A stretch of DNA of 39,245 nt from a virus (IMGVR_UViG_2558860161_000002), one strand, 5' to 3'. Counted from the stretch's first letter, positions 2,929-38,398 are shown. The notes: a model not told the origin generated them from the letters alone. Program-made: numbers and translations.

Positions 2929-2955
2929 ATCCTCAATCCCGGTAATGACTCCAAC

Positions 2956-3459
2956 TTATTGATAGTGTTTTATGTTCAGATAATGCCCGATGACTTTGTC
3001 ATGCAGCTCCACCGATTTTGAGAACGACAGCGACTTCCGTCCCAGCCGTGCCAGGTGCTGCCTCAGATTCAGGTTATGCCGCTCAATTCGCTGCGTATAT
3101 CGCTTGCTGATTACGTGCAGCTTTCCCTTCAGGCGGGATTCATACAGCGGCCAGCCATCCGTCATCCATATCACCACGTCAAAGGGTGACAGCAGGCTCA
3201 TAAGACGCCCCAGCGTCGCCATAGTGCGTTCACCGAATACGTGCGCAACAACCGTCTTCCGGAGCCTGTCATACGCGTAAAACAGCCAGCGCTGGCGCGA
3301 TTTAGCCCCGACATAGCCCCACTGTTCGTCCATTTCCGCGCAGACGATGACGTCACTGCCCGGCTGTATGCGCGAGGTTACCGACTGCGGCCTGAGTTTT
3401 TTAAGTGACGTAAAATCGTGTTGAGGCCAACGCCCATAATGCGGGCTGTTGCCCGGCAT
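2956..3459 (-). CDS. insB: IS1 InsB reading frame (normally expressed as an InsAB' frameshift fusion)
   Basis: 167-aa ORF overlapping insA 3' end, identical to the insB ORF of the IS1 at 29493..30260. Confidence 0.9.
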
Positions 3460-3653
3460 CCAACGCCATTCATGGCCATATCAATGATTTTCTGGTGCGT
3501 ACCGGGTTGAGAAGCGGTGTAAGTGAACTGCAGTTGCCATGTTTTACGGCAGTGAGAGCAGAGATAGCGCTGATGTCCGGCGGTGCTTTTGCCGTTACGC
3601 ACCACCCCGTCAGTAGCTGAACAGGAGGGACAGCTGATAGAAACAGAAGCCAC
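3378..3653 (-). CDS. insA: IS1 InsA (91 aa)
   Basis: [46 protein letters not shown]... Confidence 0.9.
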
Positions 3654-3708
3654 TGGAGCACCTCAAAAACACCATCATACACTAAATCAGTAAGTTGGTA
3701 GCATCACC

Positions 3709-4094
3709 CAAAACTGGATCGCCTTGGTTGTAATGCAATGGATATCAGGAAAACAGTGGAACAACTGACCGAAACAGGTATCAGAGTGCATTGCTTAGCA
3801 TTGGGGGGCATTGACCTGACCAGTCCAACAGGAAAAATGATGATGCAAGTAATTTCAGCAGTCGCTGAATTTGAACGAGACCTTTTACTTGAACGCACTC
3901 ATTCCGGGATAGTAAGAGCCCGGGGCGCAGGGAAACGTTTTGGTCGACCACCTGTGTTAAATGAAGAACAGAAACAGGTGGTATTCGAACGAATTAAGTC
4001 AGGTGTAAGTATAAGTGCCATTGCCCGGGAATTCAAAACCTCGCGGCAAACCATTTTAAGAGCCAAAGCAAAACTTCAGACACCTGACATATAA
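3709..4094 (+). pseudogene. pinQ: Pin-family DNA invertase, C-terminal fragment (continues the 96..308 fragment, which is on the opposite strand)
   Basis: in-frame translation from the IS1 boundary: (K)[32 protein letters not shown]...KAKLQTPDI; first ATG at 3738. Confidence 0.85.
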
Positions 4095-4191: not shown

Positions 4192-4767
4192 CTACGGCAG
4201 TGCTGGCCATTCAATATCCTGTGCAGTTGACGTATCAACACGGTTCAGCAATACCCGATACTTTTTCCATGCTTCCAGCAACGAGATTTCTTCCTCCGTT
4301 GCAATTTCCAGATCTGCAGCATCCTGAAGCGGCGCAATATGCTCACTGGCTACCTGCATCAGGCTGTTTTTTGTTTCTTCCGCCTCCCGGATCCGGAACA
4401 GTTTTTCTGCTTCCGTATCCTTCACCCAGGCTGTGCCGTTCCACTTCTGATATTCCCCTCCCGGCGATAACCAGGTAACATTTTCCGGTAACGGACCGAG
4501 TTCAGAAATAAATAACGCGTCGCCGGAAGCCACGTCATAAACCGTTTTACCCCGATGATCTTCAACGAGATGCCACGATGCCTCATCACTGTTGAAAACA
4601 GCCACGAAGCCTGCCGGAATATCTGGCGGTGCAATATCGATACTGTTTGCTGGCAGACCTGTATGAGGCGGAATATATGCGTCACCTTCACCAATAAATT
4701 CATTAGTTCCGGCCAGCAGATTATAAATTTTTATGGTCCGTGGTTGTTCACTCATTCTGAATGCCAT
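4192..4767 (-). CDS. tfa: tail fiber assembly protein (lambda Tfa family)
   Basis: 191-aa [37 protein letters not shown]..., near-identical to remembered lambda Tfa; start overlaps stf stop. Confidence 0.9.
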
Positions 4768-7700
4768 TATGCAAGCCTCACAATATAGTTAAATGCGATG
4801 TTTTTGACGGTGTTTTCCGCGTTACCAGCAGCGTTAACGGTGATGGTATGTCCATGTGAACCAATCGCAACGGAGTGCGTATGAGCACCAATACCGACAG
4901 TATGTGCGTGTGCACCTGCGCTTGCAGCAGTACCCGATACAGAGTGCGTATGAGCGCCTGCAGAAGAAGTGTTAACACTGTATTTAGAATAATCAGGTGA
5001 TCCACTTCCCGGAGCACCACTGGAACCACCTGAAACAAATGTCATCGAATGGGTATGTGCACCGGCTGAAGCAGCCGTACCGCTAACACTATGGGTATGC
5101 GCACCAGTGTTATTCGTGGATTTAGTGCCGTAATCAAACGACGATGTGGTTTTCGTCCCCAAATCCGTACTGGATACGCTGGCGCTGTGGGTGTGTGATT
5201 TAATGCCGTCCTGTTCCTGAGACAATACGGCTCGATCACTGGCGGGCTTGCCCTTAATCGTCCAGCCACGCATATCAGGGATCACGCCTGACGGATAAGC
5301 GGCTGCAAGTTTCGGGTAAGCAGATTTGTCAAAAGTCTGCCCCTGCATCAGGGCATAACCAGACGGAACGGTATCTGATGGCCACGGGATTGGTGCACCG
5401 ACTGGATAAAACTCTGCAGGAGGATGAGCCGAGGTGTAAAGCTGCGCCCACGGCGACCAGTTTGCGTCGGTCGTATCCCGTCGTGAACGAATAAATGCCG
5501 GAGCATGAGCACCGCTTGTACCACTCCAGCCGATGAGTAACTCACCTTCGCCAACGGCTGTCATCCCTTTCAGGTGAATGATATTTCCATACGCTGTTGG
5601 ATATCCGTTGTTATACACCTCGTATAACTCAAGACCTGTTGCCCCCTGCGTATTGTCTGTCAGCGCGGTTACCCGACCTTTTGAAGACAGATTAACTGAT
5701 GATACTGCTGTTCCACCTGACGGTAACGCCCCGATCTCTGATGCCGTTGGCTTATTTCTGGAGTTATAGTCCCTTCGCCAGCCAGGTGAATAATCTGTTC
5801 CGTGATTAATATAGGTAAACTGGGCGTTAGTTGTTCCACCACCAGTGGAGGTGGTCGGTGTGGTAATGCGGATCGTCATCGCTGACTTTATCCCCATTAC
5901 TTCAATGACAGCTCCGGCGAGATGAATATTACCGCAGCCAGTATCAGTAATGATTTTATTATTGCCATAAGACCAGGAACCCTTGCACATCCAGTATGGA
6001 TGGTTAAATGCTCCCTGAGAATCCAGCCACTCGATAAACTGTGCAGTCGTCCAGTTTCCTGTTGTTGTGCTTACTGACCCACCGAAGGCACGGCAGGCAC
6101 CAATATTTTTCGTAAAGGTGTCTTTGCCAGGGATATCCGCACCGTTCTGATCTTTCTGCAGACGTTTCTCAGCATTGTCATTGGCTGCTTTTACTGCCTT
6201 TGGCGTTGCCGCCAGCGTTTCAGACGTGCTGTTGGTCGCGCTGCTTAGCTGGATTATCCCTTTCTGTGCTGTCGTTGCATCCTGTGCGGTGTATTTCCCG
6301 TTAGCCAGGTCATACGCGGCCTTAACGGCTTTTGGCGTTGCCGCCAGTGACTCGGAAGTGCTGTTGGTCGCACTGCTGAGCTGTACTATCCCCTTTTTCG
6401 TCGTGCTCGCATCCTCAAGCGCCACGACGGATGCAATATCCTCTGCCCGTTTTGCCGCTGTCTCAGCGCGCGTTGCTGCAGATTCCGCCGTACTTTTGCT
6501 CTGAGCTGCTGCCGTCGCACTGCCAGCTGCCTCTGTCGCCTTCGTGGATGCCGTCGTGGCGCTACCCTTCGCTGCTGACGCCTGTCTGGTCGCCTCATCT
6601 TTTGAAGCAGACGCAGATGATGCCGATGACGACGCCGAACTGGCTGACGATGCGGCAGCCGTTTTTGAGGATTCTGCGCTGGTTTCCGACGCTTTCGCGT
6701 TCGTTTCGGATGTCTTCGCTGCGGAAGCAGACCTCGCTGCTGCGCTGGCCTGTTCAGTGGCTTCGCCAGCCTTCGTTGTGGCTGTTGAAGCAGACGATGC
6801 GGCGCTTTCTGCCGATTTTCCGGCGGCGGTGGCACTGGCTGAGGCCTGCCCGGCACTTGTTGACGCTGCACTGGCAGACGACGCAGCCGCTGTTTTTGAG
6901 CCTGCCGCAGCCGAGGCGCTCTGTCCCGCTGCCGTTTCAGAAGACCTGGCGTTCGTCTCTGACGTTTTTGCCGCCTTCGCGGAATTTCCTGCCGCTGTTG
7001 CCGAGGAAGCTGCGCTACTGGCGCTCGAGGATGCGTTCGTTTCTGATGATTTTGCCGCCTCTTTTGAAGCCGCCGCATCCCGGGCTGAGGTGGCAGCTTC
7101 TGACGCTTTCGTAGTCGCGGTGGATGCAGAAGTGGCTGCTGATTGTTGTGACGCTGCAGCATTCGTTTCTGACGTTTTCGCGGCACTGGCACTGGTAGCT
7201 GCCGCGCTTTTTGAGGACTCTGCAGCGGCAGCACTTTTTGATGCTTCAGTGGCCTTTGTTGATGCCGTTCCTGCGCTGGAAGTCGCTGACTGAGCCGACG
7301 ACGCGGCCTGTCCGGCTGACGTGCTGGCTGCGCGTGCTGAGCCTGCAGCATCAGTCGCATGGGTTGCCGCCTCACGGGCTGATGTGCTGGCATCACTGGC
7401 TGACTTCTTCGCGGCTGCCGTGTTCTGTGCCACCACGGACGCGTTACGCGCCACCTCTTCCACCATCAGCTCAAAACGGCGCAGTGCCTCCGGACGGGCA
7501 TCATCCTCCGTCATGGCACCGAGAAAATCATTCAGCGTACCGGGTCGGGAATCTTCATACACTGTGATGGTCCCGGCATGTGACGGCGGGAATCCTTCCA
7601 CCAACAGAATAACGCTGTACTGACCGTACTCAACGTCCATACTGTAACGCCCGGCTTCATCCGGATTTTCAGATGCCAGCGTGTTCACCACCACCGTGGT

Positions 7701-7796
7701 ACTGTTACGTTTTGCTTTCAGCTGGATTGTGCAGTTCTGTACCGGTTTTCCTGTGCCGTCTTTCAGTACACCTGAAATTTTTACTGCCATATTCAC
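4767..7796 (-). CDS. stf: side tail fiber protein (lambda Stf family), 1009 aa with a long Ala/Ser/Thr-rich tract and a C-terminal His-box region
   Basis: N-terminus M(NM)[25 protein letters not shown]; C-terminus with repeated GAHTHS/GAHAHT motifs ending [14 protein letters not shown]. Confidence 0.9.
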
Positions 7797-7854: not shown

Positions 7855-8454
7855 TCAGAATTTATAACCAACACCCACGATGAACCCGTCAGTGCGCCAG
7901 TCACCACTGCCGGAGCCTTCATAAGCGACATCAATGGCCACGGATTCGGTCGGGTTAAACTGCACGCCAGCTCCCCACGCCAGAGACGTGTTGCTGTGGC
8001 GACCGTCATCACTTCCGGTCAGCACATCGTGCTTTTTCCCCTTGTTGTCAGTTACGCGGAGATAATCCCCGGAGAAAGTCGACACACGGCTGTAAGCCAC
8101 ACCCGCCATCGCATACGCGCTGAACCATTCATTCACGCGCACAGACGGCCCCGCCATTACGCTGAACCAGCGGTTACGAACGGAATCTTCATGCCAGCGG
8201 GTATCGCTGGAACGGGTAATCTGGCGATTCTTGTCTCCTGCATAGCTGAACGACGTCACCATCCCCAGTGTGTCCGTAAACTCATAACGGTATTTCACGT
8301 TAATCCCGTTCAGATCATCACTGCCGGGAACGTTCGTCCGGGCATGAAGATACCCCGCGCTCAGCGTGGACTGATGTTCAGACGCCCATGCAGGCGCACC
8401 GGATACGGCCAGACAAATGGCTGCGGACAAAATGGCGGCATAAAGTTTACGCAT
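7855..8454 (-). CDS. lom: Lom outer-membrane protein (Ail/Lom/OmpX beta-barrel family)
   Basis: 199-aa ORF with signal peptide [24 protein letters not shown] and C-terminal ...GVGYKF. Confidence 0.9.
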
Positions 8455-8520: not shown

Positions 8521-11922
<3,402 letters not shown>

Positions 11923-29547: not shown

Positions 29548-29823
29548 GTGGCTTCTGTTTCTATCAGCTGTCCCTCCTGTTCAGCTACTGACGGGGTGGT
29601 GCGTAACGGCAAAAGCACCGCCGGACATCAGCGCTATCTCTGCTCTCACTGCCGTAAAACATGGCAACTGCAGTTCACTTACACCGCTTCTCAACCCGGT
29701 ACGCACCAGAAAATCATTGATATGGCCATGAATGGCGTTGGATGCCGGGCAACAGCCCGCATTATGGGCGTTGGCCTCAACACGATTTTACGTCACTTAA
29801 AAAACTCAGGCCGCAGTCGGTAA
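29548..29823 (+). CDS. insA: IS1 InsA
   Basis: 91-aa ORF identical to the insA of the IS1 at 2941..3708. Confidence 0.9.
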
Positions 29824-30245
29824 CCTCGCGCATACAGCCGGGCAGTGACGTCATCGTCTGCGCGGAAATGGACGAACAGTGGGGCTATGTCGGGGCTAAA
29901 TCGCGCCAGCGCTGGCTGTTTTACGCGTATGACAGGCTCCGGAAGACGGTTGTTGCGCACGTATTCGGTGAACGCACTATGGCGACGCTGGGGCGTCTTA
30001 TGAGCCTGCTGTCACCCTTTGACGTGGTGATATGGATGACGGATGGCTGGCCGCTGTATGAATCCCGCCTGAAGGGAAAGCTGCACGTAATCAGCAAGCG
30101 ATATACGCAGCGAATTGAGCGGCATAACCTGAATCTGAGGCAGCACCTGGCACGGCTGGGACGGAAGTCGCTGTCGTTCTCAAAATCGGTGGAGCTGCAT
30201 GACAAAGTCATCGGGCATTATCTGAACATAAAACACTATCAATAA
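29742..30245 (+). CDS. insB: IS1 InsB reading frame
   Basis: 167-aa ORF identical to the insB of the IS1 at 2941..3708. Confidence 0.9.
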
Positions 30246-38065: not shown

Positions 38066-38398
38066 ATGTCTGTCACAATTCAGGGAAATACCTCAACCGT
38101 TATTTCAAACAACTCCGCCCCGGAAGGAACATCAGAAATAGCCAAAATCACAAGACAAATTCAGGTGCTGACTGAAAAGCTTGGGAAAATCTCATCGGAA
38201 GAGGGGATGACGACACAGCAGAAAAAAGAAATGGCTGCATTGGTACAGAAGCAAATTGAAAGCCTCAGGGCTCAACTGGAGCAGTTGTTAAGGCAGCAGG
38301 CAGAGAAAAAGAATAAAGACGCGACAGTTCAGCCTGATAAAAAAGAAGAGAAAAAAGACGATACAAATACCGCTGGCACCATTGATATTTACGTCTAA
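38066..38398 (+). CDS. flxA: FlxA (FliA-regulated protein), 110 aa
   Basis: ORF MSVTIQGNTSTVISNNSAPEGTSEIAKITRQIQVLTEKLGK...; aaggaga Shine-Dalgarno. Confidence 0.85.
   Translation: MSVTIQGNTSTVISNNSAPEGTSEIAKITRQIQVLTEKLGKISSEEGMTTQQKKEMAALVQKQIESLRAQLEQLLRQQAEKKNKDATVQPDKKEEKKDDTNTAGTIDIYV

Follow-up and report, generated by a model that had tools for sequence, protein, structure and literature searches.

The window analysed here is the whole 39,245-nucleotide stretch of viral DNA (IMGVR_UViG_2558860161_000002), a Qin-like lambdoid prophage of Escherichia coli that adjoins ydfJ. Its minus strand carries the side tail fibre gene stf (4767..7796), recognised from the ORF list and from Pfam and PDB sequence matches. 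Directly downstream of stf lies the tail fibre assembly gene tfa (4192..4767, minus strand; PF02413 Caudo_TAP, E 1e-42). On the other side of stf the ORF list contains a lom-like ORF (7855-8454) and a J-like ORF (8521-11919), both likewise on the minus strand. The resulting order J - lom - stf - tfa is that of the lambdoid tail module and matches the annotated loci of relatives. Membership of the lambda-type Stf proteins follows from the N-terminal PF08400 collar domain (239 bits) and, together with the gene order and a match of residues 3-96 to the solved N-terminal domain of lambda Stf (PDB entry 9e7m, E 1.3e-51), upholds the naming of the gene in the initial annotation. The length of 1009 residues given there applies to translation from a GTG at 7796. 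The true start is likely the ATG at 7790, which yields 1007 residues and is the counterpart of the RefSeq start of the 1007-residue Stf of E. coli KMi029, a strain whose DNA is identical to the window across 5950-6650.

Judged by its matches, the encoded fibre is a mosaic: a lambda-type N-terminus is followed by a coiled-coil rod and the two PF03406 units, after which come a Mu S'-like domain and, at the end, a T4 gp37-like tip. The N-terminal collar or attachment domain covers residues 3-136 (7389..7790, minus strand; the PF08400 match). The rod is encoded by an Ala/Ser/Thr-rich tract (residues 139-455; 6432..7382, minus strand), and the two repeat units occupy residues 462-505 (unit 1; 6282..6413, minus strand, with its core motif at 6315-6395) and residues 506-549 (unit 2; 6150..6281, minus strand, core motif at 6183-6263). 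Directly after unit 2 comes the Mu S'-like domain (residues 541-697; 5706..6176, minus strand), which matches the Mu tail fibre S/S' structure (PDB entry 8ju3) with a domain E-value of 8e-69. The receptor-binding tip (residues 796-1009; 4770..5411, minus strand) resembles T4 gp37 (PDB entry 2xgf, E 5e-86), including HTHS/HSHS (His-x-His) motifs that are conserved in the alignment, and the tip region is also matched by the Pfam Collar domain PF07484. Short DNA repeats are present at 4870-5105, within the tip-coding part. Over its whole length the stf DNA is 94-97.5% identical to the stf genes of the isolated phages SPF_0923, mEp460, PhiR26_1, PhiR68_2 and PhiR42_1, and the fibre is therefore of a type in use by viable phages.

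The Ala/Ser/Thr-rich tract consists of 45 uninterrupted heptads with the pattern S-A-x-x-A-A-x, and its residue autocorrelation amounts to 0.40-0.45 at each multiple of 7, compared to 0.15-0.25 elsewhere. In the Stf of Ur-lambda, residues 102-393 have been assigned to a proximal coiled coil and residues 394-422 to a hinge, and the coiled-coil proximal rod of lambda Stf is known as trimeric (PMC12617516). In related prophage fibres the region has been named PCoil, with lengths that differ in multiples of seven (PMC3368898). From the N-terminus to the first unit there are 456 residues here and 351 in lambda, a difference of 105 residues or exactly 15 heptads. Given the 45 regular heptads and the published coiled-coil assignment, the tract is therefore a regular rod and not filler, and it is predicted to correspond to the proximal coiled-coil rod of the fibre. 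The expanded low-complexity tract of the initial annotation is thus better described as a coiled coil of 45 strictly regular heptads, which exceeds that of lambda by 15 heptads. The repeat had been placed inside this tract; its units begin at residue 462, just past the tract's end.

The repeat itself is a two-copy direct repeat of 107 nt (6177-6283 and 6309-6415), with 77% identity between the copies and a start-to-start distance of 132. In an offset scan, 132 gives the best self-match of the whole stf gene, with 82 identities in 107 positions, against a mean of 53.1 (standard deviation 1.3, maximum 58) in 100 codon shuffles. At the protein level the self-match is best at an offset of 44 (26 of 30 residues), in agreement with copies that are in frame and 44 codons apart. 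The motif KGI(V/I), followed by eleven residues, (S/T) and eleven further residues, is located at residues 468-494 (6315-6395) and 512-538 (6183-6263), and the two units share 25 of the 27 core residues. Each unit comprises a near-invariant core that starts with KG, and then a variable linker. The repeated strings quoted initially begin at 6199 and 6331, and the full 44-residue units (6150-6281 and 6282-6413) extend slightly beyond the span of 6190-6402 assigned to the duplication. Tandem Repeats Finder reports no array with a period of 132, because there are only two copies and these are 77% identical.

A search against Pfam assigns the repeat to PF03406 (Phage_fiber_2, 'Phage tail fibre repeat', IPR005068), with a score of 125.4 bits over two stretches (cut-off 22; E 5.9e-37). 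The best stretch, residues 464-504, aligns to profile positions 1-41 of 42. The family is described as a repeat of about 40 residues in phage tail fibres, frequently present in several copies, and the 44-residue unit found here stands in a protein with a tail-fibre N-terminal domain and tip, encoded upstream of tfa. A profile of the unit, run against 1.84 billion proteins, has matches in 5,931 representative proteins, and as many as 19 stretches are matched in a single one. Among the best 150 of these 5,931 proteins the units are most often spaced by 44 residues (136 cases), followed by 56 (51 cases) and 39 residues (30 cases). The unit is present in lambda Stf, P2 H, 186 K, P1 S, Mu and D108 S and the fibres of Stx phages. 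At the corresponding position of P1, in the constant part of gene S, the 1992 record (M81956.1) lists a 'repeated element a1' that is exactly 132 bp long. With a curated Pfam family and the P1 annotation of a 132-bp element, the feature has therefore already been described and curated. The repeat is thus best read, with a probability of roughly 0.8, as two tandem copies of the 44-residue PF03406 unit in the Stf of a Qin-like lambdoid prophage, and a two-unit repeat of this kind is an ordinary and already known feature. Default HMMER filtering hides single units in Ala/Ser-rich proteins, and domain annotations therefore under-report the repeat. In a search with the 109-residue array all matches were fragments of at most 190 residues, mostly from contigs of 250-570 bp, which are informative on the diversity of the units.

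The number of units varies among relatives. Lambda Stf, StfR of the K-12 Rac prophage and JJ2434 Stf each contain one unit, the stf of the window contains two, and those of PM06121 and O157:H7 strain 2149 contain three. The 120 closest clusters at 90% identity all have the distal modules of the window's Stf; two units are present in about 104 of them, one in 15 and three in a single cluster. The 15 one-unit clusters are exactly 44 residues shorter (14 of 963 residues and one partial sequence of 968 residues). Alleles of a second family, whose distal module is another one, have arrays of three, two and one units between the same flanks, spanning 496, 364 and 232 nt, respectively. A three-unit query is covered for at least 80% in 1,279 of 5,426 complete E. 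coli genomes, a count that includes some two-unit arrays. These unit-number censuses are samples (120 clusters, and 60 and 40 evenly spaced rows) and not complete counts, and each difference in number may stand for a gain or for a loss. The expectation that the repeat is a source of length variation is thus borne out as far as one, two or three units occur among relatives, but most length differences between Stf alleles arise elsewhere, from swapped distal modules, indels in the coiled coil and indels in the His-rich tip.

An alignment of ten units at the DNA level reveals hybrids. The single unit of K-12 StfR resembles the window's unit 1 in columns 1-42 but its unit 2 in columns 57-132, and the switch falls in a 14-nt stretch where the two window units are identical. 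The middle unit of PM06121 is a hybrid of the reciprocal kind, agreeing with unit 2 in columns 1-21 and with unit 1 from column 28 on. Such hybrids in both directions are the products that unequal homologous recombination between units would be expected to leave, and they show that the number of units changes by this route. The first units are 97-99% identical in DNA among E. coli Stf alleles, whatever their distal module, and unit 1 is therefore tied to the rod that precedes it. The last unit goes with the distal module: between PM06121 and O157:H7 strain 2149 it is 97% identical, whereas its identity to the units of the window is only 70-82%.

The edges of the units also delimit the similarity between alleles and that of Stf to the fibres of P2-like phages. 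Positions 5950-6650 are matched by 3,969 E. coli records, of which 60 were sampled at even spacing. The match is complete in 10 of the 60 and partial in 50, and in 45 of these 50 it stops at one of three sites: 17 at 6130, the end of a 16-residue linker; 16 at 6171-6177, the end of the unit 2 core; and 12 at 6309-6322, the end of the unit 1 core. In P2-family myophages an isolated island of 87-90% DNA identity covers 6130-6283, with no similarity on either side, and in some P2-like phages the similarity extends to both units of the array, at 79-82% DNA identity. Since allele similarity stops at unit edges, the units would act as mosaic joints at which distal receptor-binding modules are swapped. 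The clustering of end points at these edges partly reflects unrelated flanking modules, and it points to tolerated sites of exchange, not to an evolved promotion of exchange. The pattern agrees with the mosaic evolution of tail-fibre genes, which has long been known and was set out in the early 1990s for P2, P1, Mu and lambda. A mechanism consistent with these data is that the unit, by virtue of DNA that is conserved across unrelated phages, serves as a joint for the exchange of distal modules, and that exchanges in register or out of register may give rise to arrays of one, two or three units.

The origin of the second copy allows another account, in which no duplication took place: a crossover in the linker, or one out of register, would have fused a lambdoid rod with a single unit at its end to the distal module of a P2/Mu-type fibre gene, itself already carrying a unit. 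It differs from the preferred explanation in the origin of the second copy only. The near identity (97-99%) of unit 1 to the first units of other Stf alleles, regardless of the distal module, agrees with such a joining event, as does the greater similarity of unit 2 to the H genes of the P2 family (88-90% over 6130-6283) than to unit 1 (76%). In addition, the last unit of PM06121 and O157:H7 strain 2149 represents a third type that is tied to their different distal module, and the domain after unit 2 in the window is Mu S'-like. However, some P2-like H genes already carry a two-unit array with the same linker, and the whole array could therefore have arrived in one piece, through a crossover within unit 1. 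A joining event is accordingly a serious candidate for the origin of the pair, if still a somewhat improbable one. A more far-reaching proposal is that the unit is conserved at the DNA level beyond the needs of the protein, as a portable joint for recombination, common to the fibre genes of lambdoid, P2-, P1- and Mu-type phages; the polymorphism of one to three units in about a thousand E. coli genomes would then be a selected tuning of fibre length or flexibility before the hinge, and more than a by-product of exchange. This proposal is speculative and is considered unlikely.

A recent origin of the pair fares much worse. In the initial annotation the repeat was presented as a tandem duplication within stf; a local and fairly recent event in the stf lineage, by slippage or unequal exchange and now diverging, would agree with the adjacent, in-frame position of the copies at 132 bp, and in PM06121 units 1 and 2 are indeed identical from column 31 onward save for one base. 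In the window, however, a comparison over 35 codons gives a proportion of synonymous differences (pS) of 0.71 and of non-synonymous differences (pN) of 0.08, with dN/dS of about 0.04, so that the synonymous sites are close to saturation. In the 27 core codons 13 differ synonymously and two non-synonymously. The synonymous divergence is as large as that between units of unrelated phages, with a pS of 0.55 for unit 1 and the lambda unit and of 0.69 for unit 2 and the last unit (unit 3) of PM06121. The same two diverged units occur in most of the close alleles, and P2-like phages have the same two-unit array at 79-82% DNA identity. The divergence and the arrays shared with other alleles and P2-like phages imply that the pair long predates the prophage, which makes a recent duplication very unlikely. 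Units 1 and 2 are old PF03406 paralogues under strong purifying selection, and not the products of a fresh duplication.

Even less probable is that the repeat is a crossover site, or the remnant of one, of an invertible tail-fibre segment of the type of Mu G, P1 C or e14 P. A fragment of a pin-type serine recombinase gene is present at 3738-4094, adjoining tfa; the annotation of phage 186 has a 'Mu-like inversion crossover site' immediately following the homologous stretch; and the units of P1, which belong to the constant part of gene S, are found upstream of cixR. The two copies are, however, direct and not inverted. No inverted repeats of at least 18 nt were found between the fibre genes and the region beyond tfa, nor was a gix/cix-like core found near stf, and the recombinase is a C-terminal fragment of 118 residues that abuts a copy of IS1. 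The marks of an invertible segment, namely inverted crossover sites that flank alternative fibre ends and an intact Gin/Cin/Pin invertase, are thus absent: the locus has neither an inverted partner site nor an alternative tail-fibre end. Chance similarity through the biased composition of a low-complexity gene, to be considered because Ala, Ser and Thr abound in the protein and short internal repeats are numerous in stf, is of negligible probability in view of a match of 82/107 that lies about 22 standard deviations above codon shuffles and of the match to a curated Pfam family (E 6e-37).

What the two PF03406 units contribute to the fibre may be approached through lambda Stf, where the unit spans residues 358-396, immediately before the fibre hinge, and would close the proximal rod. 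In collagen-like prophage fibres the Pf2 region has been interpreted from rotary-shadowing micrographs as an internal globular node (PMC3368898), and a survey of 2021 lists PF03406 among the repeat families without known structure (PMC8078820). A profile search of the PDB with the unit found matching sequence in chains of Mu gp49 only. This protein (Mu S) has one unit at residues 111-147; in the cryo-EM paper on Mu it was built at the N-terminus only, and the paper does not state whether the model reaches the unit. AlphaFold2 monomer models, calculated for residues 440-720 from a single sequence and for the two-unit segment from a 19-row alignment, reached mean pLDDT values of 32.7 and 43.3, respectively, and both are unusable, probably because the fibre is a trimer. 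The near-invariant residues point to a folded trimeric element, and the conserved unit may form a small trimeric node of the fibre. Each extra unit should then slightly lengthen the region just before the hinge, and its effect on host range would probably be minor compared with that of the module swap itself.

With a curated Pfam family and a 132-bp element already annotated in the P1 fibre gene, the repeat carries little weight as a discovery. Its practical interest lies in the unit edges, which are natural and tolerated fusion points for engineered chimeric side tail fibres, and in the natural alleles with one, two and three units between identical flanks, which form a ready series for work on fibre geometry or adsorption. 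A Nature paper of 2024 on chimeric Stf proteins, in the text searched, states an insertion point for gpJ only and not for Stf.

[quoted passage not shown] Lambda Stf and StfR differ in having one unit each instead of two, and the rod of lambda is 15 heptads shorter. The distal modules are also different: lambda has a lambda-type hinge and StfR a module containing Gp34_trimer, while that of the window's Stf is Mu S'-like and ends in a gp37-like tip. The P1 gene S has a 132-bp repeated element (elements a0/a1) annotated at the matching place in its constant part, and the H genes of the P2 family show 79-90% DNA identity with the array. P2 gpH, 186 K, P1 S and Mu S belong, however, to contractile-tailed phages and have another N-terminal domain, which binds the baseplate. 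An active inversion site follows the units in P1 and Mu, whereas none is present here. EPclB of enterohaemorrhagic E. coli likewise has a PF08400 N-terminal domain, a heptad PCoil in multiples of seven and the PF03406 repeat (PMC3368898), but in EPclB the unit separates two collagen triple helices, whereas the stf of the window has no collagen repeat. With respect to PF03406 as a family there is no difference of substance: both units match the model end to end, their spacing of 44 residues is the commonest in the family, and two copies fall within the family's range of one to about 19.

The PF03406 unit of K-12 StfR (L002:3522-3653, aa 460-496) scores 77 bits against the profile built from the repeat unit and is found only when HMMER is run with --nobias. 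Pfam hmmscan missed PF03406 both in StfR and in JJ2434, another Stf with one unit, and the domain is likewise absent from the Pfam lists precomputed for alleles with one unit, including those of 963 aa. Where an Stf protein has the long Ala/Ser/Thr rod, the default composition-bias filter of HMMER masks a single PF03406 unit in it, and the repeat is therefore under-reported in domain annotation.

Proteins retrieved with the two-unit array as query (P0001-P0120) are, among the matches listed, mostly 'partial' fragments whose contigs measure 250-570 bp. Several prophages in one genome carry the PF03406 repeat, and short-read assemblies evidently break at it for this reason; window 5950-6650 has matches at up to 9 places in a single E. 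coli genome (among the matches listed).

The array is not the only part of stf that varies in length. In the needle tip, which resembles that of T4 gp37, short DNA repeats at 4870-5105 (aa about 897-975) code for the repeated GAHTHS and His-x-His motifs, and the tips of close Stf alleles differ by an indel of 16-17 aa, the C-terminal length being 496 versus 512-513 residues. The needle tip is a second in-frame length-variation site of stf. Among the 120 closest alleles, length differences in the rod (window 6432-7382) amount to -49, -28, -14 and -7 aa, each a whole number of heptads; this set also shows differences in Stf length of -3, -1 and +3 aa.

Two ORFs assign the prophage to the Qin family at the ydfJ locus: one for an MFS transporter of ydfJ length at the left end (1645-2928, 427 aa) and, towards the right end, a FlxA-like one (38066-38398). 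The length of the MFS ORF equals that of the ydfJ gene annotated in E. coli KMi029 (427 aa). Downstream of tfa, near a copy of IS1 (region 2941-4094), lies a 118-aa C-terminal fragment of a pin-type serine recombinase gene (3738-4094), matching Resolvase profile positions 81-144 and HTH_7. Because the N-terminal catalytic part is absent, the invertase is dead. Pfam identifies the IS1 transposase ORF at 2956-3459 and, with an equal score, a second one at 29742-30245, which is situated within the prophage, with the head/terminase region on one side and the lysis genes on the other.

KMi029 has the same stf as the window, but carries IS1 in place of tfa. At about 6087-6119 the window contains no recognisable crossover site; at the equivalent place in phage 186, directly after the stretch of gene K homologous to the window array and linker, a 'Mu-like inversion crossover site' is marked in the database entry (L008:1799-1824, in the phage 186 locus).
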